A stretch of 64,000 nt of DNA from a virus. Its lineage: Duplodnaviria > Heunggongvirae > Uroviricota > Caudoviricetes. A program made the translations under genes and the position numbers. The notes under the pieces were generated by a model, which ran no database searches, had not been told where the DNA came from, and saw nothing but the letters and a program-made list of their open reading frames with translations. The stretch's first letter is position 1, and each line of letters begins with the position of its first letter. Where the stretch lies: IMG/VR virus record IMGVR_UViG_2917886563_000007; one strand, 5' to 3'. Below, in pieces: positions 1,767-63,927 of the stretch.

Positions 1767-3032
1767 TCAGAAATCCTTTTTCAATACCAACACACAGTAG
1801 TAAAGCGTTGTCTTGATCAGATGATTCAAGTTGTGAACTTCTCTAAATAAAAGCAGTGACTTACGAATGAATTCAATGAACGTAATTTCTTGTGCTTTCT
1901 CTCTATTCATCCCTTCTTTGAAAGGGTAATACGTGATGACCTGAGTAGACTCCTTGTACTCATATTTGTAATGGGCTATCCCGTTTCTTAGTCGATTATC
2001 AATTGCCGTTTCATCAATCTTGTAGAAGCATTTATCAATAAACTGGAGTTTGGTTCCCAGGTCGGCATCGGCAAAAGCATTCAATGAAACAGCCTCCCGG
2101 CGCGGCTCATTCCTTCTCGTCACTTTCAAAGAGGGTTCAAATTCATTGTGATCACCGCGATGCAGAAGATTGTTAAGCCCCGCCAATAAGATCAACTGCC
2201 TAGAAAACACTTCTGCTAAGTCTTTATAAAAGTTGTTACAGGTATCAAAATCTGTTGTTGAAATCCTTGCAGCAACCGGGTTGTACTCCCCCTCTTTAAC
2301 GTAGTCATAAAAGAACGTCGCGCGAAATGGCAGATCTAACTCGATGATTTTAGGGTAAAGACTAAGGCAGTCTTGATGCAGATTTTGGAGGAAATTATTT
2401 GCCAGAATCTCATCAATATAAGCGACAGTTTTGTCATGATGATGCGCGTGAAGCCATTGATAAAGACCAGGTAGTTCATTAGAAAGCTCTTCGTTTTGCT
2501 CATGAATAGTAAAAGGGGATGACATGATTGAAGTAGCTGAGTACAACGCGGCCAATACGTCTTGTTTTTTATGAGAACGCAATGTAACCCCGGGTATCTT
2601 GTTGCAGATCCCATCTAACTTATCGATGTCGCCACGTTTGTACTGGGTAATAATGCGCTGCAAGTCTCTTTGCATCGGAAGAAGGCGATTCAATACCTCA
2701 AGGCGTTGAGCAAGATGATAATATGCGTCTTCACCAAGTTCACTGACAACCCGTATGAATGTCGTTTTCCCCATTTCGTACTTGCCAAAGTAGGCAGGGA
2801 AATCTAGATGCAAATCGACAAATGGGTTTTCCCCTTTAAATGGCCCATCAAAATCAACAATGTCCTCTGCCCCTTTTAACGTTCCATCCGGATGGCCAAT
2901 AATGAAAGAAATACATTCCTCACATACCGGGCAAGCAAACTGAAATGGTTGTACTTCTCTGTTGGACATGCCAATCCTGCAATCGATCAATGTACCGCAG
3001 GTATCGCATTTGAAGCATTTGCAGATGTTCAT
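1767..3032 (-). CDS. hypothetical protein with N-terminal Cys-rich zinc ribbon and C-terminal R-x4-H (HEPN-like, Abi-like) motif
   Basis: 421-aa ORF; N-terminus CKCFKCDTCGTLIDC...CPVCEEC; near C-terminus RLRNGIAHYKYEY resembles the Rx4-6H HEPN RNase motif of AbiD/AbiF-like proteins; low-GC codon usage relative to proA. Confidence 0.5.
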   Translation of the reverse strand: MNICKCFKCDTCGTLIDCRIGMSNREVQPFQFACPVCEECISFIIGHPDGTLKGAEDIVDFDGPFKGENPFVDLHLDFPAYFGKYEMGKTTFIRVVSELGEDAYYHLAQRLEVLNRLLPMQRDLQRIITQYKRGDIDKLDGICNKIPGVTLRSHKKQDVLAALYSATSIMSSPFTIHEQNEELSNELPGLYQWLHAHHHDKTVAYIDEILANNFLQNLHQDCLSLYPKIIELDLPFRATFFYDYVKEGEYNPVAARISTTDFDTCNNFYKDLAEVFSRQLILLAGLNNLLHRGDHNEFEPSLKVTRRNEPRREAVSLNAFADADLGTKLQFIDKCFYKIDETAIDNRLRNGIAHYKYEYKESTQVITYYPFKEGMNREKAQEITFIEFIRKSLLLFREVHNLNHLIKTTLYYCVLVLKKDF

Positions 3033-5959: not shown

Positions 5960-6277
5960 TTAGCGTTGAGTGGGATAAACAGCGATGTATGCGTAGCCGC
6001 AACTACCAAGGGTATCGGCTTCGCAGGTGAAACCATTGTGGTACAGGTTGACGCAGTGGGCATGTCGGGGATTCAGTTCACCGGTGATCAGCATCAATTC
6101 CATCTGGCTGATAAAGTGCGGGAAAGTTTCATCCAGTTTCCGGCATTCGGCGTCACTGAACTTACCGATGATGCTGGCCCGGTCAGCCAGGTAATGCAGC
6201 CGGTTCCCCTCCTGCACAAGGCGGGCTCCCAGGCGCGGCGTGATATCCCGCTGCAGGCCCCATGTGGTGTTGCTCAT
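5960..6277 (-). CDS. CbeA/YeeU/YafW-family antitoxin
   Basis: 105-aa ORF directly upstream of the toxin; …CFGARLVQEGNRLHYLADRA…ELMLITGELNPRH… resembles YeeU-type antitoxins. Confidence 0.75.
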   Translation of the reverse strand: MSNTTWGLQRDITPRLGARLVQEGNRLHYLADRASIIGKFSDAECRKLDETFPHFISQMELMLITGELNPRHAHCVNLYHNGFTCEADTLGSCGYAYIAVYPTQR

Positions 6278-6295
6278 TTATAACCTCTTTTATTG

Positions 6296-6529
6296 TCAGT
6301 TCAGGGTGATACTCATCAGGCAGGCATACGGTCCGTTGCGGTCCTGGCGGCGTTGGGCGTATACCGCCAGCACACCGGGAATGTCAGGAACCACCTGACC
6401 GGTGTAATGACAGACGCTACCGTGCCACTGATATTTTCCGGTGCAGTAGCGAAAGATTCGGGACTCAGGATGCTGGCGGTATATCGTCATTGCCCGGCGT
6501 TTACTGATAATTTTCATGTAATACCTCAC
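6296..6529 (-). CDS. YeeT/YkfH-like DUF987 protein
   Basis: 77-aa ORF (…MKIISKRRAMTIYRQHPESRIFRYCTGKYQWHG…) resembling YeeT family; conserved position between RadC-like and antitoxin genes. Confidence 0.65.
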   Translation of the reverse strand: MRYYMKIISKRRAMTIYRQHPESRIFRYCTGKYQWHGSVCHYTGQVVPDIPGVLAVYAQRRQDRNGPYACLMSITLN

Positions 6530-7002
6530 AGCAGACCGTGTCCTGCGAACGAATAGATTTGCCTGCCACCAACAATCAGATGGTCAGGGACACGGATATC
6601 CACCAGTTGAAGTACCTGAGTCAGTCGCTGCGTGAGGGCTTTGTCAGCCTGGCTGGGCGTCGTCTCGCCGGAAGGATGGTTATGCGCCAGTATCACCGCC
6701 GCCGCATTGAAGTGCAGTGCACGTTTGACCACTTCCCGGGGATGAACCTCGGTGCGGTTAATCGTGCCACTAAAGAGCGTCTCATGGGCGATAAGCTGGT
6801 TCTGATTATCCAGATACAGCACCCGGAACTCTTCCCGCTCAAGTGCGGCCATATGCAGTCGCAACCACTCCCGAACGGCGTGAGTGGAGGTGAAGGCTAC
6901 CCCGGGCTCATGCAGATGCCGGTCCAGAATCCTGAGCGCCCGCTGAATGAGACGCCGGTCCTGTGGCGTCATCTCGCCGGGTAAAAAGGAGAGCTGTTTC
7001 AT
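6526..7002 (-). CDS. RadC-like JAB/MPN domain protein (YeeS/YkfG family)
   Basis: 158-aa ORF with HNHPSG…T-P-S-x-AD motif typical of RadC-like JAB domain. Confidence 0.8.
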   Translation of the reverse strand: MKQLSFLPGEMTPQDRRLIQRALRILDRHLHEPGVAFTSTHAVREWLRLHMAALEREEFRVLYLDNQNQLIAHETLFSGTINRTEVHPREVVKRALHFNAAAVILAHNHPSGETTPSQADKALTQRLTQVLQLVDIRVPDHLIVGGRQIYSFAGHGLL

Positions 7003-7017
7003 CCGTTGTTCCTCCGT

Positions 7018-7476
7018 TCAGTCGATGATACGCAGAATGGAGTGAGCTTCAGGATGCTGCAGGGCATAGTCCCGCAAGCGATAATAGTGTGCGGTCATTG
7101 CGTCACATTCTGTACGACAGGCGTGATGGCTGTATTCAATCAGGCAGACCGCGATACCTGCGGCTTCCACACTCATTTCCGCACCATTACCGTTCATGCT
7201 GTTGAACAGATGCCATTTATCACCACCGTCAGCATCAGGGGCCATAAACGCACCGCCATTGCTGAGCGTGTAAAAGGACCAGATACCACCGCTGTACTCA
7301 TCACAGAAGCGCTCCATCCAGCCGAAAATACGGGGTTCCAGCGTTATCCACTGCGGAATAGCGCCAAAATACAGCGGCCAGAAATCGAGGCGCTGTTCGT
7401 CAGGTACTGGTGTTGCAGTGAGGTCAAATTGAGGTTCATTAGCGGACATCAATTCGCGTTTAGTTTGTGTCGTCAT
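7018..7476 (-). CDS. antirestriction protein (KlcA/ArdB-like, YfjX/YafX family)
   Basis: 152-aa ORF; …DEQRLDFWPLYFGAIPQWITLEPRIFGWM…YRLRDYALQHPE… resembles E. coli YfjX/YafX. Confidence 0.75.
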   Translation of the reverse strand: MTTQTKRELMSANEPQFDLTATPVPDEQRLDFWPLYFGAIPQWITLEPRIFGWMERFCDEYSGGIWSFYTLSNGGAFMAPDADGGDKWHLFNSMNGNGAEMSVEAAGIAVCLIEYSHHACRTECDAMTAHYYRLRDYALQHPEAHSILRIID

Positions 7477-20261: not shown

Positions 20262-20310
20262 CGCATTCGTAATGCGAAGGTCGTAGGTTCGACTCCTATT
20301 ATCGGCACCA
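20262..20310 (+). repeat. 49-bp direct repeat of thrW 3' end (att core; pseudo-tRNA)
   Basis: cgcattcgtaatgcgaaggtcgtaggttcgactcctattatcggcacca identical to 1396-1444; flanking approx 20 bp also similar (t(c)taaatcaat(a/t)agttac). Confidence 0.9.
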
Positions 20311-20324
20311 TCTAAATCAATAAG

Positions 20325-21488
20325 TTACACATCATTAGTACCTTCCTTATTTTTTGACTGGGACAAATTTGGGACCGATGGGTTCAGGATCGAGTCTATT
20401 TGCCGTGCGTGTTCGGTAAGGTGATTAGGTGCAAGGTGAGCATATCGACGAACCATTTCGATAGACTCCCAGCCTCCCATTTCCTGTAACACTGACAACG
20501 GGACTCCGGCTTGAACCAGCCAACTTGCCCAGGTGTGTCTCAAGTCGTGAAATCTGAAATCATCAATACCAGCCCGTCTCAGCGCCGCTTTCCAGGCTGT
20601 GTTTGCGTCATACCGCATCTTCCTTACTGTTGGCGCTTTCGTTCCGTCTGGTTTGGTACAGCTTTCCTTGTACACAAATACCCAACGGTGATGATTCCCG
20701 ATTTGTTTTTTCAATACGCGACATGCAGTATCATTCAGCGCAACGCCAATTGCGCGGTTTGATTTACTCTCTTCCGGGTTTATCCATGCCACCCGGCGCT
20801 GCATATCTATTTGTTGCCATTCAAGGTTGATGATGTTCGAGCGTCTTAAACCTGTTGCCAGTGCAAATTCAACAACAGACTTTAATGGCTCCGGACATTC
20901 ATCAATCAGCCTTTGTGCTTCATGAGGCTCCAGCCAGCGGATCCGTTTATTCTTTGGTTGAGGCACTTTAATAATTGGTGCCTTATCCAGCATTTTCCAT
21001 TCACGCTCTGCGGCTCTTAGCAGGGCCTTTATAAATGAAAGATGCGTTGCCTTCGTTGCAACGGACGCTGGTTTTGGCGTGTATTCTGGAACTGGTTTCC
21101 CTTTTTTTCTGCATGCTTCTGCCCTGAGTTTCCAGTTTTCCTCATGACGCCGGTTCGTCATTTTCTGCATTGCTGAATAAATTTTTGATTCAGTAATGTC
21201 TCTTAGTTGCATTCCTGCGAAATGTTGAAGCCAGAATCCGATCCGGCTTTTGTCATCGTCCAGTGATTTTTTATGTGCTTTCTCTTCGAGCCACCTGACA
21301 CACGCCTCCTCGAACGTCATATCAGGTATTTCACCAAGTTTGCTGACCCGCCATGCTTCAGCCTTTAGCTTGTCATGGAGCTCTGTCGCCTGCCTTTTGT
21401 CCTTTGTTCCAAGAGACTGTTTAAATCTTTTACCGTTCGGCAATGTGAAACTGGCGTACCATATTTCACCTCTGCGGAAGAGTGACAT
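20325..21488 (-). CDS. int: tyrosine integrase (P22/DLP12 IntD-like)
   Basis: 387-aa [44 protein letters not shown]… matching P22/DLP12-type Int as recalled; stop codon 14 bp from tRNA repeat. Confidence 0.9.
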
Positions 21489-27686: not shown

Positions 27687-28226
27687 ATGCAACCACTTAC
27701 ATACCAACAGACTAGCGGATTTAGCCCGACTGCGGTGATAAATCGTTCTCAAACAAAACAGGCGCCAGGCCACGAAAAAATCCGTGATGCCGTTCGCGCC
27801 TGGTCGGCTGCAGATAATCAGGATGTTGTTGCCGCACTCATTGTGAATGAGTATCGGGAGCTGGGCGGCGGCACCATCGATTTCCCTGATGATGTCAGCC
27901 GTGCACGCCAGAAGTTGTTCCGCTTCCTCGATAACAAATTCGATTCTGAAAAATACCGAAATAACGTGCGTGAACTGACCCCGGCAATTCTGGCGGTACT
28001 ACCGCTGGAATATCGCGGCCACCTGGTTGAGCAGGATAGCTTTATGGCTCGGCTGGCTGAAATGGAAAAGGAACTCAGTGAGGCAAAGCAGGCGGTCATT
28101 CTCAACGCACCACGCCACCAGAAACTGAAGGAAATGAGTGAAGGTATTGTGTCGATGTTTCGTGTGGACCCAGATCTGGCTGGTCCACTGATGGCGATGG
28201 TCACCACCATGCTGGGGGCAATATGA
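27687..28226 (+). CDS. hypothetical protein in cII position
   Basis: 179-aa ORF between cro and O; not recognisably CII-like. Confidence 0.45.
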   Translation: MQPLTYQQTSGFSPTAVINRSQTKQAPGHEKIRDAVRAWSAADNQDVVAALIVNEYRELGGGTIDFPDDVSRARQKLFRFLDNKFDSEKYRNNVRELTPAILAVLPLEYRGHLVEQDSFMARLAEMEKELSEAKQAVILNAPRHQKLKEMSEGIVSMFRVDPDLAGPLMAMVTTMLGAI

Positions 28227-29242
28227 CAGGTTCAGAAATGGCGAAAGCCGGTCTGCTGGAACAGAACCGACTTTCAGGTGCAAATCGTAACGCACTCATT
28301 GCGGGAGGAATTATGGCAAACACTGCTGAGATATTCAATTTTCCAGTGCCGGATGTGGCACAAAAGGAGCCGCGCGTGGCAGATCTCGATGATGGTTATA
28401 CGCGCATTGCTAATGAGTTGCTGGAAGCTGTGATGCTGGCCGGATTAACACAGCACCAGCTTCTGGTCTTCCTGGCTGTCATGCGCAAAACATATGGCTT
28501 TAATAAAAAAATGGATTGGGTGAGCAACGAGCAACTTTCCGAGTTAACCGGGATATTGCCGCACAAGTGTTCTGCTGCAAAAAGTGTTCTGGTAAAGCGT
28601 GGGATTTTTATTCAGAGCGGGCGGAATACCGGCATTAATAATGTGGTCAGTGAATGGTCAACATTACCCGAATCAGGTAAGAAAAATAAAGTTTACCTGA
28701 AAGAGGTAAATTTACCTGAATCAGGTAAAAAAAGTTTACCCAAATCAGGTAAAGACGTTTACCTGAATCAGGTAAACACAAAAGACAAACTAACAAAAGA
28801 CAATATAAAACCTTATTCGTCCGAGAATTCTGGCGAATCCTCTGACCAGCCAGAAAACGACCTTCCTGTGGTGAAACCGGATGCTGCGATTCAGAGCGGC
28901 AGCAAGTGGGGGACAGCAGAAGACCTGACCGCCGCAGAGTGGATGTTTGACATGGTGAAGACCATCGCGCCATCAGCCAGAAAACCGAATTTTGCAGGGT
29001 GGGCTAACGATATCCGCCTGATGCGTGAACGTGACGGACGTAACCACCGCGACATGTGCGTGCTGTTCCGCTGGGCATGCCAGGACAACTTCTGGTCCGG
29101 TAACGTGCTAAGTCCGGCCAAACTCCGCGACAAGTGGACCCAACTCGAAATCAACCGTAACAAGCAACAGGCTGGCGTGACAGCCGGAAAACCAAAACTC
29201 GACCTGACGAACACTGACTGGATTTACGGGGTGGAGCTATGA
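28223..29242 (+). CDS. O: replication initiator O (lambda-like C-terminus, distinct N-terminal specificity domain)
   Basis: 339-aa ORF; C-terminal third matches lambda O as recalled (…NFAGWANDIRLMRERDGRNHRDMCVLFRWACQDNFWSGNVLSPAKLRDKWTQLEINRNKQ…); ori iterons inside. Confidence 0.9.
   Translation: MTGSEMAKAGLLEQNRLSGANRNALIAGGIMANTAEIFNFPVPDVAQKEPRVADLDDGYTRIANELLEAVMLAGLTQHQLLVFLAVMRKTYGFNKKMDWVSNEQLSELTGILPHKCSAAKSVLVKRGIFIQSGRNTGINNVVSEWSTLPESGKKNKVYLKEVNLPESGKKSLPKSGKDVYLNQVNTKDKLTKDNIKPYSSENSGESSDQPENDLPVVKPDAAIQSGSKWGTAEDLTAAEWMFDMVKTIAPSARKPNFAGWANDIRLMRERDGRNHRDMCVLFRWACQDNFWSGNVLSPAKLRDKWTQLEINRNKQQAGVTAGKPKLDLTNTDWIYGVEL
28666..28776. repeat. ori iterons (5 copies of ~19-bp tttacctgaatcaggtaaa-like site) followed by A-rich region
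   Basis: Copies at about 28666, 28692, 28711, 28735, 28758; each internally palindromic; followed by A-rich stretch 28777-28812. Confidence 0.85.
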
Positions 29243-54078: not shown

Positions 54079-57000
54079 ATGGGTAAAGGCAGCAGTAAGG
54101 GGCATACCCCGCGCGAAGCGAAGGACAACCTGAAATCCACGCAGTTGCTGAGTGTGATCGATGCTATCAGCGAAGGGCCGATTGAAGGTCCGGTGGATGG
54201 ATTAAAAAGCGTGCTGCTGAACAGTACACCGGTGCTGGACAGTGAGGGGAATACCAACATCTCCGGTGTCACGGTGGTGTTCCGGGCAGGTGAGCAGGAG
54301 CAGACACCGCCGGAGGGATTTGAATCCTCCGGTTCCGAGACGGTACTGGGTACGGAAGTGAAATACGACACGCCGATCACCCGGACTATCACGTCTGCAA
54401 ATATCGACCGTCTGCGCTTTACCTTCGGTGTGCAGGCACTGGTGGAAACCACCTCAAAGGGTGACAGGAATCCGTCGGAAGTCCGCCTGCTGGTTCAGAT
54501 ACAACGTAACGGTGGCTGGGTGACAGAAAAAGACATCACCATTAAGGGCAAAACCACGTCGCAGTATCTGGCCTCAGTGGTGGTGGATAACCTGCCGCCG
54601 CGCCCGTTTAATATCCGGATGCGCAGGATGACGCCGGACAGCACCACAGACCAGCTGCAGAACAAAACACTCTGGTCGTCATACACCGAAATCATCGATG
54701 TGAAACAGTGCTACCCGAACACGGCACTGGTTGGCGTACAGGTGGACTCGGAGCAGTTCGGCAGCCAGCAGGTGAGCCGTAATTATCATCTTCGCGGGCG
54801 CATTCTGCAGGTGCCGTCGAACTATAACCCGCAGACGCGACAATACAGCGGTATCTGGGACGGAACGTTTAAGCCAGCATACAGCAACAACATGGCATGG
54901 TGTCTGTGGGATATGCTGACCCACCCGCGCTACGGCATGGGGAAACGTCTTGGTGCGGCGGATGTGGATAAATGGGCGCTGTATGTCATCGGCCAGTACT
55001 GCGACCAGTCAGTGCCGGACGGCTTTGGCGGCACGGAGCCGCGCATCACCTGTAATGCGTACCTGACCACACAGCGCAAGGCGTGGGATGTGCTCAGTGA
55101 TTTCTGCTCGGCGATGCGCTGTATGCCGGTATGGAACGGGCAGACGCTGACGTTCGTGCAGGACCGACCATCAGATAAGGTGTGGACCTATAACCGCAGT
55201 AATGTGGTGATGCCGGATGATGGCGCGCCGTTCCGCTACAGCTTCAGCGCCCTGAAGGACCGCCATAATGCCGTTGAGGTGAACTGGATTGACCCGGATA
55301 ACGGCTGGGAGACGGCGACAGAGCTTGTGGAGGACACGCAGGCCATTGCCCGTTACGGTCGTAACGTCACGAAGATGGATGCCTTTGGCTGTACCAGCCG
55401 GGGGCAGGCGCACCGCGCCGGGCTGTGGCTGATTAAAACGGAACTGCTGGAAACGCAGACCGTGGATTTCAGCGTGGGCGCAGAAGGCCTTCGCCATGTG
55501 CCGGGCGATGTTATTGAAATCTGCGATGATGACTACGCGGGGATCAGCATCGGCGGGCGCGTGCTGGCGGTGAACAGCCAGACGCGGACACTGACGCTCG
55601 ACCGTGAAATCACGCTGCCATCCTCCGGCACCACGCTGATAAGCCTGGTTGACGGTGAGGGTAATCCGGTCAGTGTGGAGGTCCAGTCCGTCACCGACGG
55701 CGTGAAAGTGCAAGTGAGTCGGGTTCCTGACGGGATAGCTGAATACAGCGTATGGGGGCTGAAGCTGCCGACGCTGCGCCAGCGCCTGTTCCGCTGCGTG
55801 AGTATCCGTGAGAATGACGACGGCACGTATGCCATCACCGCTGTGCAGCATGTGCCGGAGAAAGAGGCCATCGTGGATAACGGGGCGCACTTTGACGGCG
55901 ACCAGAGCGGCACGGTGAATGGTGTCACGCCGCCAGCGGTGCAGCATCTGACCGCAGAAGTCACCGCAGACAGCGGGGAATACCAGGTGCTGGCGCGCTG
56001 GGATACGCCGAAGGTGGTGAAGGGGGTGAGCTTTATGCTTCGCCTGACCGTGGCAGCGGATGACGGCAGTGAGCGGCTGGTCAGCACGGCCCGGACGACA
56101 GAAACCACATACCGCTTCACGCAACTGGCGCTGGGAAACTACAGGCTGACAGTCCGGGCGGCAAATGCCTGGGGGCAGCAGGGCGATCCGGCGTCGGTAT
56201 CGTTCCGGATTGCCGCACCGGCAGCGCCGTCGCGGATTGAGCTGACGCCGGGCTATTTTCAGATAACCGCCACGCCGCATCTTGCCGTTTATGACCCGAC
56301 GGTACAGTTTGAATTCTGGTTCTCGGAAAAGCGGATTGCGGATATCAGGCAGGTTGAAACCACAGCCCACTATCTTGGCACGGCGCTGTACTGGATAGCC
56401 GCCAGTATCAATATCAAACCGGGCCATGATTATTATTTTTATATCCGCAGTGTGAACACCGTTGGCAAATCGGCATTCGTGGAGGCTGTCGGTCGGGCGA
56501 GCGATGATGCGGAAGGTTACCTGGATTTTTTCAAAGGCCAGATAACCGAATCCCATCTCGGCAAGGAGCTGCTGGAAAAAGTCGAGCTGACGGAGGATAA
56601 CGCCAGCAAACTGGAGGAGTTCTCGAAAGAGTGGAAAGACGCCAACGATAAATGGAATGCCATGTGGGGCGTCAAAATTGAGCAGACCGAAGACGGCAAA
56701 CATTATGTCGCGGGGCTTGGCCTCAGCATGGAGGATACAGAGGAAGGCAAACTGAGCCAGTTCCTGGTTGCCGCTAACCGTATCGCGTTTATTGACCCGG
56801 CAAACGGGAATGAAACGCCGATGTTTGTGGCGCAGGGCAACCAGATATTCATGAACGAAGTGTTCCTGAAGTATCTGACGGCTCCCACCATTACCAGCGG
56901 CGGCAATCCGCCGGTATTTTCCCTGACACCGGACGGGCGGCTGACGGCGAAAAATGCCGATATCAGCGGTAACGTGAATGCGAACTCCGGGACGCTCAAC

Positions 57001-57492
57001 AACGTCACGATAAATGAGAACTGTACGATTAAGGGAATGCTCGAGGCTACTCAGGTCAGAGGTGACTTCGTTAAAGCTGTATCTAAGCCATTCCCGAAAA
57101 AAACTGGCTCGTGGGGCGATACGGAAACACCAGGCGGGACGGTTACAGTCACCATTTACGATGATCATAACTTTGATCGCCAGATTATTATTCCGCCCAT
57201 TATTTTTAATGGTGTGGCGTATGACGATCCGGGGAGCGGTAATAACCCGGGAGGTACGCGATACACGGGTTATGGTTTTGAAGTTCGCAAAAACGGCGTA
57301 TTAATCGCATCCAGAGAAACTAAAGGAGCCATTCCCGGTAGTTACAGTGCGGTTATTGATATGCCGAGTGGTGGTGGTAGTGTCACTCTGGAGTTTAAGA
57401 TTTTCCAGAAAGGCAATCAGGGCGCAGGTAACATCACAGACTGTACGGTGATTGTGACCAAAAAAGCTGCTTCCGGTATCAGTATCCGTTGA
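54079..57492 (+). CDS. J: central tail fibre / host specificity protein J, with divergent C-terminal receptor-binding region
   Basis: 1137-aa ORF; N-terminal about 990 aa match lambda gpJ as recalled, last about 150 aa differ. Confidence 0.9.
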
Positions 57493-57552
57493 AATATTTA
57501 TAACCCCAATACGGGCGCCAGAAATGGCGCCTTTTATATTTGTGGAGTGAGT

Positions 57553-59922
57553 ATGGCAGTACAGATTTCAGGTGTGCTGAAAGATGGTGCGGGAAAACCA
57601 ATACAGAACTGCACTATTCAACTGAAGGCAAAGCGTAACAGCACCACGGTACTGGTGAACACGGTGGCCTCTGAAAATCCGGATGAAGCCGGGCGTTACA
57701 GCATGGATGTTGAGTATGGCCAGTACAGCGTTATCCTGCTGGTTGAAGGTTTTCCGCCTTCACATGCCGGAACCATTACCGTCTATGAAGGTTCCAGTCC
57801 GGGGACGCTGAATGATTTTCTCGGTGCCATGACGGAAGATGATGTCATGCCGGAGGCATTGCGCCGTTTTGAGGCTATGGTGGAAGAAGCAGCACGTAAC
57901 GCTGAAGCTGCCTCTCAGAGCGCAGCGGCGGCAAAGAAATCCGAAACTGCAGCGGCATCATCGAAGAACGCGGCGAAAACCTCAGAAACGAATGCAGCTA
58001 ACAGCGCACAGGCGGCAGCGGCCTCACAGACTGCATCGGCAAACTCCGCGACAGCAGCCAAAAAATCAGAAACCAACGCGAAAAATAGCGAAACAGCCGC
58101 AAAGACGAGCGAAACCAACGCAAAGTCCAGCCAGACGGCAGCGAAAACCAGCGAAACGAATGCCAAAGCCAGTGAAACTGCGGCGAAAAACAGCCAGGCT
58201 GCAGCAGCTGAAAGTGAGAGCGCGGCAGCCGGTTCTGCGACTTCAGCAGCCGGATCAGCAACTGCTGCGGTTAACAGTCAGAAAGCAGCGAAGACGAGTG
58301 AAACTAACGCAAAGTCCAGCCAGACGGCAGCGAAGACCAGCGAAACAAATGCCAAAGCCAGCGAAACTGCGGCGAAAAACAGTCAGGATGCAGCGGCCCA
58401 AAGCGAGAGTGCCGCAGCTGGTTCTGCAAGTGCGGCGGCTTCTTCTGCCACTGCATCAGCCAACAGTCAAAAAGCTGCAAAAACCAGTGAAACCAACGCA
58501 AAGGCGAGCGAGACTGCGGCGGCTAACTCGGCGAAAGCATCCGCTGCAAGCCAGACAGCGGCTAAAGCAAGTGAAGATGCAGCCAGGGAGTACGCAAGCC
58601 AGGCAGCTGAGCCGTATAAACAAGTTTTGCAGCCGTTGCCTGATGTGTGGATACCGTTTAATGACTCGATGGATATGATCACCGGATTTGGCCCGGGATA
58701 TAAAAAAATAACAGTGCGCGATGATGTGGTCACTATACCATCCGACAAAATTGTCCCGTTTTCCCGCGCGAGTTCCGCGACCTATATCAATAAGTCCGGC
58801 GCTCTTACCATTGCAGAAATTAATGAGCCACGTTTTGAAAAAGAAGGGCTGTTAATTGAAGGGCAGAGAACTAACTATCTAAAAAATTCTAATACACCGG
58901 AATTGTGGTACTACCACAGTTTACTGGCGAAAGAGTATGGGGTTGATAATTACGGTTTTAATTATGCAACCGTCACCGTGACAGACAGTCTTGTAGGCAC
59001 AACCAGTAGTTATCAGATTCATAGTGTAACAGGAGAGAACAGGTTTTCTCTGTCCATCGGTGAAACCTGCACTTTTTCTGCCCGCTTTCGTGGAGTTAAT
59101 TCACGTTGTCGCGTCCATATATCTCTTGTTATTGGCGAAAATGTTAAAACATCCGTTGATGTATGTCTGGAGCCAGATACAGGTGAGGTTAAGGCGTACG
59201 GTAATAAGGCGCTGGTGACATTCAGAACGGAAAAACAGGGGGACTGGTGTTACTTTGAAACAACATATACCGCCGCAGAGAATATTGACGAAGTGGTATG
59301 CGGTTTTTTTATAACCAATCCTGAAGATGGTGGTTTTTCTTCTGATTCGTCATTAACAATGACTACGCCGCAAATTGAAAAAGGGCCATGCGCTTCATCG
59401 TTTATTATTTCCGGAAACACACCAACCACGCGCGCCAGTGATATGGTTATTTTTTCAACCAGAAATAACATAAGTTCTGTCCCTTTAAGCTGTCTTGTTG
59501 AAATACATAAAAATTGGGACTCTACGCCAAATCAGGCCCCACGAATTTTAACCACTATTGGCGTGGCGACTAATGATGAACAACTGGTATTTGCTTTCAG
59601 GAAGCCTACAAGTCCGGATGTAGAGCCTTTACCTTATGTTCAGTTTGGAGTGAGATCTGCATATCTTAGTCCATCTGTGAAGGCCGGGCGCAAAATGATT
59701 GCTGGTTTTGTCTGTAATAGCTCGACTGAATTTCGTTGCTGTTGTAATGGTTACCTGTCACCTGTTCAGACTTCGTCATGGAAGAATACCGGAGCTGCAC
59801 ATGAAATACGTATTGGGGGAACTTCTGCTGGCGGAGACCGCCACTTGTTTGGTCACGTTCGTAACCTGAGAATATGGCATAAAGAATTAACTGATGCGCA
59901 AATGGGGGAGAGTATTAAATGA
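57553..59922 (+). CDS. stf: side tail fibre protein (Stf-like N-terminus, repeat region, distinct C-terminal jelly-roll-like domain)
   Basis: ORF 57547..59922; MAVQISGVLKDGAGKPIQNCTIQLKAKRNSTTV… as lambda Stf N-terminus; SETNAK/TAAK repeat region; C-terminus ends …HVRNLRIWHKELTDAQMGESIK. Confidence 0.8.
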   Translation: MAVQISGVLKDGAGKPIQNCTIQLKAKRNSTTVLVNTVASENPDEAGRYSMDVEYGQYSVILLVEGFPPSHAGTITVYEGSSPGTLNDFLGAMTEDDVMPEALRRFEAMVEEAARNAEAASQSAAAAKKSETAAASSKNAAKTSETNAANSAQAAAASQTASANSATAAKKSETNAKNSETAAKTSETNAKSSQTAAKTSETNAKASETAAKNSQAAAAESESAAAGSATSAAGSATAAVNSQKAAKTSETNAKSSQTAAKTSETNAKASETAAKNSQDAAAQSESAAAGSASAAASSATASANSQKAAKTSETNAKASETAAANSAKASAASQTAAKASEDAAREYASQAAEPYKQVLQPLPDVWIPFNDSMDMITGFGPGYKKITVRDDVVTIPSDKIVPFSRASSATYINKSGALTIAEINEPRFEKEGLLIEGQRTNYLKNSNTPELWYYHSLLAKEYGVDNYGFNYATVTVTDSLVGTTSSYQIHSVTGENRFSLSIGETCTFSARFRGVNSRCRVHISLVIGENVKTSVDVCLEPDTGEVKAYGNKALVTFRTEKQGDWCYFETTYTAAENIDEVVCGFFITNPEDGGFSSDSSLTMTTPQIEKGPCASSFIISGNTPTTRASDMVIFSTRNNISSVPLSCLVEIHKNWDSTPNQAPRILTTIGVATNDEQLVFAFRKPTSPDVEPLPYVQFGVRSAYLSPSVKAGRKMIAGFVCNSSTEFRCCCNGYLSPVQTSSWKNTGAAHEIRIGGTSAGGDRHLFGHVRNLRIWHKELTDAQMGESIK
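58100..58440 (+). repeat. tandem ~189-bp coding repeats inside stf
   Basis: 58101-58250 and 58290-58440 are near-identical (…gcaaagtccagccagacggcagcgaa(a/g)accagcgaaac…); further degenerate copies upstream. Confidence 0.8.
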
Positions 59923-60200
59923 AAGATTTAACACTCAAATTTGCAGACAGGGCCGACTTTTCGGCCTTCATGGATAGCACGGGCTATTATGATGACGAGT
60001 CGATGCAGGATGATATTCTTATTGACGTGATAGGTAACGTGTACAAAGAAACCGGAGAACTTACTGAAGATGGCGAGCCGGTATGTGTTAAGGAAGACGG
60101 ATATTTTGTAAACATGCGCATCATTAATGATGTGAAAACACCGTCAATATTCGATGAATACGTGGTTGCTGTTGAGCATCAACTTCGTGGCTGGATGTGA
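59919..60200 (+). CDS. hypothetical protein (fibre-associated position)
   Basis: 93-aa acidic ORF overlapping stf stop by 4 nt. Confidence 0.45.
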   Translation: MKDLTLKFADRADFSAFMDSTGYYDDESMQDDILIDVIGNVYKETGELTEDGEPVCVKEDGYFVNMRIINDVKTPSIFDEYVVAVEHQLRGWM

Positions 60201-60209
60201 GGAAGAAAA

Positions 60210-61250
60210 ATGGCTACATCGACAGTAATTCCTGATGACATCAAAACGCTAAAATCCGATGTTAGTAAACTAAAAACTGATCAAGGAAGCTATGCAACAA
60301 AATCATATGTAGACAATAAAACAACATGGAATAGTTATTGTAATGTAATCTATGATCAAAAGTCATTGCCCACAACTGGAACTATATTTAGCGGTAAGAT
60401 GCACTTGTCAAATAAGACAGGAGAAACCGAAAACGCTTATAGTGAGATGTACACCAGAAAAAATATTGACGGCACTAAAGATACAATGACAAGGATTGTC
60501 ACACACAATGGAACAAAAGGTATCTTCTGGGATTTTAGCGATCTTTACGGTGGGACATTGATTTTCCCAGGAAATGAAGGTTACTTGAAAATGGGTAAGT
60601 GCCTCATGTCTTATGGGAATCGTGTTGATAACGCCATGATTAAATTTGATTACACAGACACATTACAAATCAAATATGCTAATCATGGGTCAACCATGAC
60701 ATTAAATACACAGGGAACCGCTCACGCTGGCGTAACAACTCGAATATGGGGCAATTCTAGCCGCCCGGTTGTTTATGAAGTTGGCGTAGATGAGGCTCTG
60801 TATATGTTCTACGCACAGAAAACTACCAGCAATACCTACGAATTAACGGTTAACGGCGCGTGTAATGCAAGTGCATTTAATCAAGGCTCTGACCGGGATC
60901 TGAAAGACAATATTCAGGTGATCGATAATGCAACCGACCGCATTCGTAAAATGAACGGCTATACATACACGCTTAAAGAAAACGGTATGCCTTACGCTGG
61001 TGTTATTGCACAAGAAGCCCTGGAAGCCATCCCCGAAGCCGTAGGGTCTATGATGAAATATCCAGACGGTGGGAGTGGATTAGATGGAGAAGAAGGTGAA
61101 CGGTATTACACTGTAGATTATTCTGGTGTTACTGGCTTGCTTGTTCAGGTAGCCAGAGAGTCAGACGACAGAATAACAGCACTGGAAGAAGAAAACGCAG
61201 AATTAAGACAAAGATTATCTGCAATTGAGGCGACGCTTGTGTCTAAATAA
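60210..61250 (+). CDS. tail fibre/tailspike protein with C-terminal intramolecular chaperone (peptidase S74-like) domain
   Basis: 346-aa ORF; C-terminal …SDRDLKDNIQVIDNATDRIRKMNGYTYTLKENG…AGVIAQEALEAIPEAV…DYSGVTGLLVQVARE…ITALEEENAELRQRL typical of autoproteolytic chaperone domains of phage fibres. Confidence 0.6.
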   Translation: MATSTVIPDDIKTLKSDVSKLKTDQGSYATKSYVDNKTTWNSYCNVIYDQKSLPTTGTIFSGKMHLSNKTGETENAYSEMYTRKNIDGTKDTMTRIVTHNGTKGIFWDFSDLYGGTLIFPGNEGYLKMGKCLMSYGNRVDNAMIKFDYTDTLQIKYANHGSTMTLNTQGTAHAGVTTRIWGNSSRPVVYEVGVDEALYMFYAQKTTSNTYELTVNGACNASAFNQGSDRDLKDNIQVIDNATDRIRKMNGYTYTLKENGMPYAGVIAQEALEAIPEAVGSMMKYPDGGSGLDGEEGERYYTVDYSGVTGLLVQVARESDDRITALEEENAELRQRLSAIEATLVSK

Positions 61251-61286
61251 TATTAAGGGGCCGAGCGCCCCGTTTTATTGGGTAGG

Positions 61287-61586
61287 ATGAAAATGGATAT
61301 AACACCTTTCCTTCATGCACTTTGTGCTGTGGCTGCGCAGGTACTGATTGGCCTTTTTACCGGAAACTGGGCTTACGGAGCTATAGCCGGTTGTACGTTC
61401 TTCATTGCGCGTGAACACACCCAGGCAGAATATCGCTGGATTGAAATGTTCGGGCACGGCAAGCGTATGAATATGCCGTGGTGGGGCGGTTTTGATCCAC
61501 GCGCGTGGGATGTAGCAAGCCTGATGGATTTTTCTGTGCCGGTGGTGGCGTGTCTGCTGGTCTGGGTATTTATCCGTTCAACATAA
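61287..61586 (+). CDS. small membrane protein
   Basis: ORF 61278..61586; two hydrophobic segments (…FLHALCAVAAQVLIGLF… and …FSVPVVACLLVWVFI…). Confidence 0.45.
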   Translation: MKMDITPFLHALCAVAAQVLIGLFTGNWAYGAIAGCTFFIAREHTQAEYRWIEMFGHGKRMNMPWWGGFDPRAWDVASLMDFSVPVVACLLVWVFIRST

Positions 61587-61894
61587 AAAGTCGCAGCAAC
61601 TTGTCATGGCGGAATACTGCGGCTGGCTGGTGAGCTATCGATAGTGCGAGTATGGAATGATTTCCAGCCATTATAGATTTTACGTATTTTTTTGCATGAG
61701 AGGATTTGCACCACCTCCCACCGACCATCTATGACTATACGCCACCATTTCTAGGGCTGCTATGTGCCAGAAGCGGACATTATGACAGCCAGGAAGCCCT
61801 TATCTGAACGAAAAAAATAATGTCGTTGGGATGGTTTACTTTACAATGTCAGTTTTAAACAGCCTACAAAACAGGTGATCACGTGCATGCCAAC

Positions 61895-62785
61895 ATGATT
61901 GAATACCTAAATATTTTCATACAGGTTGTTGAGCAGGGTAGCTTCACTAAAGCTGCTGATGTACTTCAGATCCATCGCCCCACCGTGAGCAAAGCAATAC
62001 AGCAGATAGAGCATGATCTGGGTGTAAAACTCATTTATCGCACAACCCGAAAGCTGAGCGTTACTGCTGAAGGGGATGAGTTCTATCATCATGCCAGGCA
62101 TGTCCTGGCCGAAGTTAATGACATGATGGCCAGTTTTTCACCGACTCTTCCACCGCGAGGACGCCTGAGACTTGATGTGCCCCTGGCGCTGGCGCATTCC
62201 ATATTGATCCCTAATCTTAGGCATTTTCAGACACTGTATCCAGGTATTGAAGTTGTGCTGGTTTCTTCGGATAAAAAAACTGATTTGATCACGGAAGGCG
62301 TAGATTGCCTTATCCGCCTGGGTGCGCTTCAGGATTCTAGTTTTATATCCAGACGTCTTGGTGACATCCGGATGGTTACCTGTGCAGCCCCGTCTTACCT
62401 GCAGCAGCATGAGCGGCCAGAAACACTTGCGGATCTGGATAAACATCGGGCAATTAACTTTTTTAGCGACCACAGTCGTGACGTCATGGAATGGAAGTTT
62501 ATCGAAAACGGGAGCATTGTTTCGCTACGTCCTGCGGGCAGCCTGCTGGTTGATAATTCCGATATTCTGCTTTCCTGTGCTCTGGCTGGTCTGGGCATTA
62601 TCCAAGCTACCTATGATGCCGTTGCTCCCCATATTGCTTCCGGCGCTCTTGAAGAGATTCTGCCGCAATACCCATCGGTGTCAAAGCCCGTGTCAGTGAT
62701 GTATCCCGACAGGCGCTACCTTTCTCCAAAAGTGCGCGTCTTTATCGACTGGTTCAGTGATGTTCTGGCCACGCAGATCCGCTGA
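61895..62785 (+). CDS. LysR-family transcriptional regulator
   Basis: ORF 61883..62785; N-terminal HTH (…GSFTKAADVLQIHRPTVSKAIQQIE…LGVKLIYRTTRKLSVT…). Confidence 0.85.
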   Translation: MIEYLNIFIQVVEQGSFTKAADVLQIHRPTVSKAIQQIEHDLGVKLIYRTTRKLSVTAEGDEFYHHARHVLAEVNDMMASFSPTLPPRGRLRLDVPLALAHSILIPNLRHFQTLYPGIEVVLVSSDKKTDLITEGVDCLIRLGALQDSSFISRRLGDIRMVTCAAPSYLQQHERPETLADLDKHRAINFFSDHSRDVMEWKFIENGSIVSLRPAGSLLVDNSDILLSCALAGLGIIQATYDAVAPHIASGALEEILPQYPSVSKPVSVMYPDRRYLSPKVRVFIDWFSDVLATQIR

Positions 62786-62934
62786 AGCAGGCGGATTGTT
62801 AATGGATAATTAATACTGAAGTTCCCTCTCAGCTATTTCTGGTGTGTTTGTAACAACGTAGATTGTTCACAAATGATTCGGGCATCCCTTCGGCATTATT
62901 CTGAAGGAGTGCCTTTAACTGAAGAGAGCTGAAT

Positions 62935-63927
62935 ATGTCTAAAGTTATTACCTTTAACCGTACCGGAGGCCCGGAAGTGCTGGAATTTGTTGATGTACAG
63001 GTGCCTGCGCCGACAGCGGGTGAAGTGCAGATCCGCGTACATGCGATAGGTATCAACCGTGCAGAAATCATGTACCGCAACGGCCAGTATGTTATTGAGC
63101 CGGAATTTCCGGCACGTCTTGGTTATGAAGCGGCTGGCGTTGTGCAGGCCGTAGGTGAGAATGTTGATGAGTTTACCATTGGAGATCTGGTCAGCGTTAT
63201 CCCTTCATTTATGTTTAATGAATACGGTATGTACGGTGAAGTGGTCAATGCACCTGTGCATGCTATCGTGAAGCATCCTGAAAACCTTTCTTTTGAGGAA
63301 GCCGCTGCAAGCTGGATGATGTATGTCACCGCTTATGGTGCGCTGGTTGAATATGGCAATCTTCAGGCTGGTCAGAATGTTGTGATCCGCGCAGCATCAA
63401 GCAGCGTAGGTCTGGCTGCCATACAGATAGCTAACATGCTGGGTGCAAACCCAATTGCACTCACTCGGACCTCTGAAAAAAGTGAAATGCTACTGAAAGC
63501 TGGCGCAGCTGCCGTCATTGCTACTGCAGAGCTGGATATGGTTGCTGAAATCAATCGAACAACAGATGGCGTAGGTGCCCATATTGTTTTTGATCCCGTC
63601 GGCGGGCCGGACGTGGCAAAACTGACGCAGGTGATGGCATCACAGGGCATGTTTTTCCAGTATGGCGCGCTCGATAGCCGTGACATGCTTGTGCCTGTAT
63701 TTAATATTCTCGGTAAGCATCTCACTCTGCGTGGATATGAGCTGTTTGAAATCACGACTGATTCTGAAAAAATGGCGCGCGCAAAATCCTTCATAACAGA
63801 AGGCTTACGAGCTGGCAAACTGAAACCGGTCATCGATAAAACGTTCCCGTTCGAAGAGATTGCAGACGCCCAGCGCTATATGGAGGCCAATGGCCAGGTA
63901 GGCAAAATAGTCGTGACCGTTGAGTAA
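62935..63927 (+). CDS. zinc-type alcohol dehydrogenase / quinone oxidoreductase family protein
   Basis: 330-aa ORF; MDR fold signatures (…GEVQIRVHAIGINRAE…, …AASSSVGLAAIQIA…). Confidence 0.8.
   Translation: MSKVITFNRTGGPEVLEFVDVQVPAPTAGEVQIRVHAIGINRAEIMYRNGQYVIEPEFPARLGYEAAGVVQAVGENVDEFTIGDLVSVIPSFMFNEYGMYGEVVNAPVHAIVKHPENLSFEEAAASWMMYVTAYGALVEYGNLQAGQNVVIRAASSSVGLAAIQIANMLGANPIALTRTSEKSEMLLKAGAAAVIATAELDMVAEINRTTDGVGAHIVFDPVGGPDVAKLTQVMASQGMFFQYGALDSRDMLVPVFNILGKHLTLRGYELFEITTDSEKMARAKSFITEGLRAGKLKPVIDKTFPFEEIADAQRYMEANGQVGKIVVTVE

Follow-up and report, generated by a model that had tools for sequence, protein, structure and literature searches.

The window analysed here, 64,000 nt of Caudoviricetes DNA held as IMG/VR record IMGVR_UViG_2917886563_000007, has Escherichia coli as its source and carries a lambdoid prophage that ends with the side-tail-fibre gene stf, followed on the + strand by open reading frames (ORFs) for an acidic protein of 93 amino acids (aa), a 346-aa protein and a small membrane protein, hereafter orf93, orf346 and orf99 (Table 1). 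These three ORFs lie where a reading made from the sequence alone had placed them. That sequence-only reading took them for an extra fibre module in place of lambda tfa with a candidate moron behind it; no Tfa-type gene (PF02413) does follow stf, but the fibre genes are better described as a standard three-gene lateral-fibre cassette (stf, orf93 and orf346) with an exchangeable tip that bears an intramolecular chaperone (IMC). We consider it likely that orf93 and orf346 form the distal part of a multi-protein side-tail-fibre cassette and that orf99 is an unrelated accessory membrane gene.

Table 1 Features of the prophage and of its right end, in window coordinates
Feature	Position	Strand	Basis or remark
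Integrase gene	20325-21488		first in the lambdoid prophage order
Replication, lysis, head and tail genes			follow the integrase gene in this order
J	54079-57492		follows the tail genes and precedes stf
stf, side tail fibre, 791 aa	57547-59922	+	matches to PF08400, PDB 9e7m and NF048003
Conserved last ~30 residues of Stf, RHLFGHVRNLRIWHKELTDAQMGESIK	59830-59919	+	identity across loci
orf93, 93-aa acidic protein	59919-60200	+	isoelectric point (pI) 4.09; phrog_1361, phrog_18574
orf346, 346-aa tail-fibre protein	60210-61250	+	PF13884, phrog_4563
Putative N-terminal docking peptide of orf346, residues 1-27, MATSTVIPDDIKTLKSDVSKLKTDQGS	60210-60290	+	conservation across slot alleles
Variable mature part of orf346, residues 28-226, presumed receptor-binding tip	60291-60887	+	identity between loci and fibre-end alignments
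Peptidase_S74 IMC domain of orf346, residues 227-346	60888-61250	+	PF13884 and Ser-Lys dyad; C-terminal coiled-coil-like helix
Short G+C hairpin, 5 bp, then GTTTTATT	61257-61271	+	terminator-like pattern between orf346 and orf99
orf99, small inner-membrane protein, last prophage gene	61287-61586	+	phrog_1443, AlphaFold2 model, family conservation
Non-coding right end of prophage	61587-61782		limits of flank and phage homology

Anatomy of the fibre cassette

Stf consists of three parts. Its N-terminal anchor (residues 1-133) is of the lambda Stf type, as indicated by matches to PF08400 phage_tail_N (E 6e-67) and to PDB 9e7m 'Tail fiber protein' (E 2.6e-49), and orf346 has no such domain; an Ala-rich repeat shaft (residues 134-368) leads to a variable C-terminal receptor-binding part (residues 369-791, here Stf-C), of which residues 436-630 match NF048003 GTA_spike_fiber, with a weak match also to the RcGTA head spike fibre 6TB9. 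A Pfam scan found no S74 domain and no Tfa belonging to Stf itself. The anatomy of the locus was compared across 168 loci fetched from IMG/VR, with slot counts taken over distinct sequences. The C-terminal 420 residues of Stf fall to only ~40% identity between loci in which orf93 remains >90% identical, a pattern opposed to the co-variation expected of a Tfa-type protein. Wherever orf93 identity reaches 87% or more, Stf ends in ~30 residues that are 80-97% identical, while the 90 residues before them are <20% identical, and this short tail diverges together with the type of orf93. The shaft (58042-58521) is made of 21-nt repeats (7-residue, Ala-rich), including a 189-nt tandem duplication (58045-58422), which account for the extreme AT skew of this region.

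The product of orf93 is acidic, as had been read from its sequence (pI 4.09; 21 Asp and Glu against eight Lys and Arg). Its ATG overlaps the stf stop codon in the window (ATGA), and an overlap of 1 or 4 nt is kept in 82 of 84 distinct loci, the two genes abutting in the remaining two. Its matches, phrog_1361 and phrog_18574, are both PHROGs of unknown function. An orf93-like gene was accompanied by a Stf-C-type fibre in eight of eight cases, and the protein is a conserved accessory of this fibre type and a candidate adaptor or assembly factor. The AlphaFold2 model, built on 16 sequences because the profile search gave identifiers for close relatives only, has an alpha/beta fold at a predicted local distance difference test (pLDDT) score of 78, with no informative structural neighbour and no Tfa-like neighbour in the PDB; a Tfa family match was likewise found for neither orf93 nor orf346 in Pfam, NCBIfam or PHROGs. 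A Tfa-like chaperone was ruled out as an identity for orf93, which lacks both profile and fold similarity to that family and does not co-vary with the Stf tip. Pantoea and Comamonas prophages (L184 6487-7002 and L189 6438-7004, respectively) encode a longer form in which the orf93-like domain (phrog_18574) carries a C-terminal extension of ~80-90 residues (phrog_6034); this extended gene stops 1-6 nt ahead of an orf99 homologue.

A hidden Markov model search bore out the S74-type domain suspected at the C-terminus of the 346-aa protein: residues 227-278 match PF13884 Peptidase_S74 over profile positions 1-57/58 (E 3.4e-14; 53.3 bits against a gathering cut-off of 22). The whole protein matches phrog_4563 'tail fiber protein' (E 2.8e-201), in agreement with its earlier assignment as a fibre component. 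The domain begins with the catalytic dyad Ser227 (60888-60890) and Lys232 (60903-60905) in the motif S227-D-R-D-L-K232, that is Ser-x4-Lys, and this SDRDLK aligns with SDRRIK of the solved long-tail-fibre tip PDB 6f45; the dyad is kept in every allele of the 346-aa type and in the virulent phage JenP1, and S-x4-K is kept in a shorter, ~234-aa allele and in the virulent phage PeterMerian. S74 domains such as those of endoNF and T5 pb1 fold the trimeric tip to which they are attached and then cleave themselves off, and the domain of orf346 occupies the corresponding C-terminal position directly behind a fibre tip. Self-cleavage of orf346 is predicted at Ser227, which would leave a mature product of residues 1-226 (~25 kDa).

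The remainder of orf346 divides into a constant start and a variable tip. Most of positions 1-21 are at least 90% conserved among 72 distinct slot proteins of both allele types, and the same N-terminal peptide opens the S74 proteins of Drexlerviridae and Queuovirinae. As in the second genes of branched fibres, orf346 adjoins a first fibre gene, lacks a virion anchor and has a short N-terminal segment common to its alleles. The mature part shows bimodal identity between loci, either ~65% or ~90% to the window; residues 62-226 align with the distal ends of 1200-1567-aa tail fibres (phrog_6578, phrog_5668), and the fibre C-termini of T5-like, rV5-like and Dhillonvirus phages share 44-53% identity with residues ~140-346, which are ~29% identical to the T5-type Ltf.

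The slot between orf93 and the membrane gene is polymorphic. Among distinct loci it holds the 346-aa S74 gene in 52, the ~234-aa gene in 41 and little or nothing in three; the ~234-aa allele matches PF13884 at 26 bits and agrees with the 346-aa allele at 18 of the first 27 residues. Alleles of the tip and of Stf-C assort independently: one locus (L138) is 98% identical to the window in Stf-C2 and 65% in the tip, and another (L063) is 96% identical in the tip and 30-38% in Stf-C. Phage 21 and ev207 carry stf, orf93 and orf99 without a tip gene, so the tip gene is optional. The conservation pattern of the Stf tail, orf93 and the tip N-terminus thus describes one conserved block between two variable receptor-binding regions. 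Taken from sequence comparison, the assortment, the conserved block and the tipless phages are consistent with a second, optional receptor-binding tip docked on a conserved junction, and they argue against a chaperone matched to the specificity of Stf.

The same cassette in other phages

Many lambdoid coliphages and prophages, among them PhiR46_1, HannyBb, Tritos and 2G7b, contain the block of Stf-C, orf93 and S74 gene. The block is present at 80% coverage or more in 140 complete E. coli genomes, and is 100% identical across the cassette in an IMG/VR prophage contig. It is also found in virulent phages, namely the Nonagvirus ESCO3, JenP1 and the Drexlerviridae member PeterMerian/Bas05 (bas05_0031-0029), in an identical three-gene order and at 35-79% identity gene by gene: BLASTP values for Stf, orf93 and the S74 protein are 42%, 47% and 48% (N-terminal) in PeterMerian and 35%, 45% and 79% in JenP1. 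The Drexlerviridae and Queuovirinae (JenP1, ESCO3) loci share with the window an acidic middle protein of 92-93 aa (45-47% identical to orf93 in PeterMerian and JenP1) and an S74 protein with the N-terminus MATxTVIPxDIxxLK; PeterMerian and JenP1 alike retain the Stf tail (RHLFGH..RNLRIWHK..LTD) and the S-x4-K dyad. Unlike these loci, the cassette of the window lies in a temperate lambdoid prophage, is joined to a lambda-type Stf anchor and Ala-rich shaft, and is followed by a membrane gene that the virulent phages lack. By gene order and identity, then, Stf-C, orf93 and the S74 gene are a conserved three-gene lateral-fibre cassette common to T1-like and 9g-like virulent phages, a known type and not a peculiarity of lambda. 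The G+C content (GC) of the Stf C-part, orf93 and orf346 (58651-61250) is 0.39-0.44, with 0.36-0.45 at third codon positions, and that of the rest of the prophage (21500-54000) is 0.52; the low values are consistent with import from lower-GC virulent phages.

Work on the BASEL phages describes the lateral tail fibre locus of small siphoviruses as highly allelic and made of one, two or more proteins (PMC8594841), and proposes that it binds O-antigen or lipopolysaccharide glycans as primary receptor (PMC8594841, PMC11990801); distal IMC-bearing fibres attached to proximal fibres with a lectin-like domain have also been described (PMC11990801; 10.1101/2024.09.12.612763). A precedent for such an arrangement comes from DT57C, where the first 45 residues of LtfB match phiEco32 gp15, which docks on gp14 to give a branched fibre (PMC4728585, PMC10713586). 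Like the LtfA/LtfB pair of DT57C and DT571/2 and the gp14/gp15 pair of phiEco32, the window has a second fibre protein with no homology to virion anchors, a short conserved N-terminal segment and a C-terminal PF13884 domain. In that type the second fibre is thought to be attached to the first, giving two receptor specificities per fibre, and gp346, the product of orf346, may be attached to Stf in the same manner. The two systems differ in that LtfA and LtfB of DT57C both carry S74 domains and no 93-aa middle gene has been described there. With the endosialidase endoNF of K1F, T5 pb1 and the S16/T4-like gp37 tip (6f45), orf346 shares PF13884, Ser-x4-Lys at the start of the domain, a C-terminal position behind the tip and a helical end; unlike in those proteins, its carrier is very short (226 mature residues) and free-standing and is not the end of a protein of ~1000 aa or more.

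A conserved membrane protein behind receptor-binding genes

The product of orf99 is hydrophobic (grand average of hydropathy +0.49), strongly so in residues 5-25 and 76-97 and moderately in residues 27-41. A two-helix membrane protein of 100 aa had been expected. Its membrane character stands, and the record of phage 21, where the homologue is annotated 'putative membrane protein', quotes two transmembrane domains from TMHMM, but the AlphaFold2 model (34 homologues, pLDDT 94.5) has three helices (residues 6-25, 28-55 and 76-98) and the length is rather ~97-99 aa. The start is probably the ATG at 61293, giving 97 aa, because AGGA lies at 61284-61287, 5 nt before it, and homologues begin with MD[ILY][ST]P. 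The protein matches phrog_1443, a PHROG of unknown function, and nothing in PADLOC, Pfam or NCBIfam, and hence no known defence or exclusion family (Cor/Llp, Imm, Sie); no lipobox was seen, Cys13 being preceded by H-A-L and not conserved. A permissive Pfam scan of 34 family members returned only sub-threshold matches to PhoR-N, and one of the 34 has a sub-threshold match to Phage_holin_8 (E 0.04). A holin was ruled out by the long conserved inter-helix loop, the almost uncharged C-terminal tail and the chromosomal homologues; other phages of the group, such as the NCTC9041 prophage remnant, moreover already encode a lambda-family holin. The hairpin ahead of orf99, only 15 nt from its first ATG, was rejected as a terminator, as its fold is no better than that of shuffled sequences (z -1.23).

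The expectation that the gene would be conserved was amply borne out. The family has 442 homologues, all unnamed, and a profile search covering 1.84 billion representatives gave 453 clusters at 50% identity; lengths run from 63 to 150 aa among the 150 clusters listed of the 453, and no fusion to an informative domain was seen. The family has an invariant core, RExxQAEYRxI, and in 121 diverse representatives, whose median identity is 39%, the invariant polar core consists of H10, R42, E43, Q46, E48, R50, R60, W74 and P85.

Homologues come immediately after the host-recognition genes in temperate phages unrelated to one another. They lie behind stf and a 92-aa gene in lambdoid phage 21, between the tailspike gene and int in P22-like Gally, between genes for fibre assembly and the sheath in phiHAP-1, and behind a J-like giant protein in a Comamonas prophage; the copy in a P2-like Aeromonas prophage overlaps the stop codon of the fibre gene. 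Upstream of the Gally homologue are a terminator with a 9-bp stem, an AT-rich spacer of 190 nt that contains a promoter-like site, and a ribosome-binding site belonging to the gene itself; promoter-like sites are no commoner there than expected by chance. These slots are the sites of gtrABC and oac in P22-like phages and of Z/fun in P2. Moron or conversion genes behind receptor-binding genes include P2 Z/fun, P22 gtrABC, Sf6 oac and lambda lom and bor, and small inner-membrane exclusion proteins include T4 Imm and HK97 gp15. The orf99 family has several traits in common with these genes: it occupies the same slots (among them, in lambdoid phages, the position beside attR where the late operon ends), its product is a small inner-membrane protein, and it is found in temperate phages but has been lost from their virulent relatives. 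It differs from all of them in that it has no sequence or fold similarity to them, is far more conserved than typical exclusion proteins and occurs also as a lone chromosomal gene. In phage 21 (L238 4386-7835) and ev207 (L007 4897-8346) the membrane gene is directly followed, on the opposite strand, by a sitABCD iron/manganese transporter operon.

The presence of orf99 does not depend on its neighbours. It occurs behind differing types of receptor-binding protein, also where there is no S74 gene, and is carried by 96 of 99 IMG/VR cassettes and missing from three; some part of a 2-kb query that includes it is matched by 1910 of 5426 complete E. coli genomes. No homologue is present in the virulent phages with the same fibre cassette (ESCO3, JenP1 and PeterMerian), and virulent HC6 (~48 kb; L242 3465-3620) retains an unannotated, frameshifted remnant (…RRRANIPWWGGFDWRAWDLPSLLD) directly after an 859-aa S74-type tailspike gene. 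The GC of orf99 is 0.51, compared with 0.39-0.44 for the fibre genes. The position behind receptor-binding genes, the absence or decay in virulent phages and the difference in GC favour an accessory, lysogeny-linked gene over a fibre component. By its position in other phages the gene fits a moron, and the earlier proposal of a moron at the prophage terminus holds to the extent that orf99 is the last prophage gene and that its homologues in Gally and phiHAP-1 are placed like morons; the window itself has no predicted promoter and only a weak hairpin before the gene, and lone chromosomal copies exist as well. A search over 69 diverse loci found no conserved neighbour of the family. In several Aeromonas species (L173-L175 and L179, ~5980-7320) a homologue adjoins a pirin gene in what appears to be a conserved chromosomal locus, and A. 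salmonicida has a further copy in a P2-like prophage.

Prophage boundaries and surroundings

The right flank of the prophage (61623 onward) is 98% identical to E. coli strains NCTC9041 and GDSC2BY4G and belongs to the thrW/pao region. Homology to the NCTC9041 flank begins at 61623 and to the G3/10 flank at 61754, and homology to phages PhiR11_1 and IdasGreatGrand extends rightward to ~61778-61782. The junction of phage and host therefore lies somewhere within 61623-61782, ~40-200 nt beyond the orf99 stop codon and not at it. The 3' end of tRNA-Thr(CGT) (thrW) is directly repeated over 50 bp, at 1369-1445 and 20262-20311, and the two copies bracket an 18.8-kb island with an integrase-like ORF of its own (1767-3032), which lies upstream of the lambdoid prophage and in tandem with it. 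At the right end of the prophage a further copy of this thrW attachment repeat, which would be the third, was looked for and not found.

Several further features of the window were recorded. Five 19-nt iterons (TTTACCTGAATCAGGTAAA-like) at 28663-28776, inside an O-like replication gene (28223-29242), form a lambda-type origin. A 665-aa antisense ORF within J (55171-57168, - strand), in a stretch of 60% GC, is most likely a shadow ORF and not a gene. The gap between J and stf (57492-57547) has no lom, unlike that of PhiR46_1 and IdasGreatGrand, and contains nothing but a G+C hairpin and its T run (57513-57532). To the right of the prophage, genes for a LysR regulator and a zinc-type alcohol dehydrogenase (61883-63927) are present in 45 of 5426 complete E. 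coli genomes and so represent rare accessory DNA, which adjoins integrases or prophage remnants in both strains inspected (G3/10 and NCTC9041).

Proposed roles and alternative interpretations

Under the interpretation that we favour, Stf would be anchored at the tail tip through its lambda-type N-terminus and would contribute a variable glycan-binding module of its own in its C-part, which resembles the head spike of gene transfer agents. The 346-aa protein would be a second, short receptor-binding fibre made as a precursor, in which the S74 domain would drive trimer folding of the preceding tip and then cut at Ser227 with Lys232 as the base. Mature gp346 may dock by its first ~21-27 residues on the conserved end of Stf, on the 93-aa protein or on both, which would produce a fibre of two specificities, either branched or extended, with the 93-aa protein as a putative adaptor or assembly factor. 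The three-helix membrane protein would stand outside the fibre as a moron-type accessory gene beside receptor-binding genes and would most plausibly act on the cell envelope, in surface conversion or exclusion.

Several points weigh against this interpretation. The conserved block of Stf tail, orf93 and tip N-terminus could reflect recombination linkage and not physical contact, and the BASEL annotators named the PeterMerian S74 homologue a 'putative lateral tail fiber chaperone'. For orf99, no promoter is predicted upstream of it in the window; its Pantoea and Comamonas homologues are tightly linked to an orf93-like gene (gaps of 1-6 nt), which would also suit a function connected with the fibre; many family members in a scan of one genome per species adjoin housekeeping genes (ligA, pirin, cyclophilin and rph) in Sphingomonadaceae and Aeromonas; and such strong conservation with an enzyme-like invariant core is unusual for exclusion factors.

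One alternative concerns orf99. Its product might be a small membrane enzyme or housekeeping factor that acts on a conserved envelope lipid or precursor and was acquired by phages from bacterial chromosomes, with no role in exclusion and with a position behind fibre genes that reflects only a permissive site of insertion; the invariant polar core across the 121 representatives, the chromosomal copies beside ligA, pirin and rph and the lack of fusion partners are all in keeping with this, which we regard as possible but doubtful. The family resembles no known enzyme family or fold, and its repeated placement behind receptor-binding genes in five virion types is hard to credit to chance alone.

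A second alternative is that the S74 protein acts in trans as an assembly chaperone of Stf, replacing lambda Tfa, with orf93 as co-chaperone and no structural fibre at all. Beyond the BASEL annotation, orf346 does occupy the position of lambda tfa, Stf has neither S74 domain nor Tfa of its own, and the ~234-aa allele would leave a mature part of only ~105-115 residues, short for a fibre. We nevertheless judge this improbable: specificity-matched chaperones would not assort independently of Stf-C alleles as the tips do; the variable stretch ahead of the S74 domain has its homologues in the distal tips of long fibres, where the domain works in cis; S74 domains, as is generally known of endoNF and T5 pb1, fold the polypeptide that bears them; and Stf does not depend on an S74 gene, since phage 21 and ev207 combine this Stf type with orf93 but lack one.

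That the membrane protein instead works with orf93 as a partner within the fibre cassette, perhaps as a membrane platform or release factor that Stf-C-type fibres require to assemble or to function, and is not an independent moron, is also quite unlikely: the recurrence, at spacings of 1-16 nt, of the trio of Stf-C-type fibre, orf93-like and orf99-like genes in Escherichia, Pantoea and Comamonas, the near-constant presence of orf99 in the IMG/VR cassettes and its lack of a predicted promoter would suit such a partner, but virulent phages with the same cassette do without orf99 or, in HC6, carry it decayed, it follows unrelated receptor-binding proteins (a P22-type tailspike, a P2-type fibre) where there is no orf93, and most family members in diverse genomes adjoin no fibre gene.

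Returning to the accessory-gene interpretation, we venture, as a speculation more apt to be wrong than right, that the orf99 family (H10...RExxQAEYRxI...R...W...P) constitutes a new, widespread group of conversion or exclusion factors linked to receptor-binding genes, which would alter a conserved step in envelope-glycan or lipid biogenesis, or DNA entry, be used by temperate phages of all three tail types and protect the lysogen or its progeny virions from adsorption by glycan-fibre phages. Separately, and just as tentatively, the 93-aa protein may be a new universal adaptor of lateral fibres.

Significance

The fibre part of the locus matters mainly for annotation and engineering, in that E. 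coli lambdoid prophages share a swappable lateral-fibre cassette with T1-like and 9g-like virulent phages. The conserved junction of Stf tail, 93-aa protein and tip N-terminus, set between two receptor-binding modules that can be exchanged independently, may provide a natural design rule for changing the targets of lambda-based delivery particles. The more open lead is the membrane protein, which represents an unnamed and strongly conserved family found directly behind the host-recognition genes of temperate phages of three morphotypes. If orf99 does modify the envelope or block infection, it would be a common conversion or exclusion factor that has escaped notice until now.

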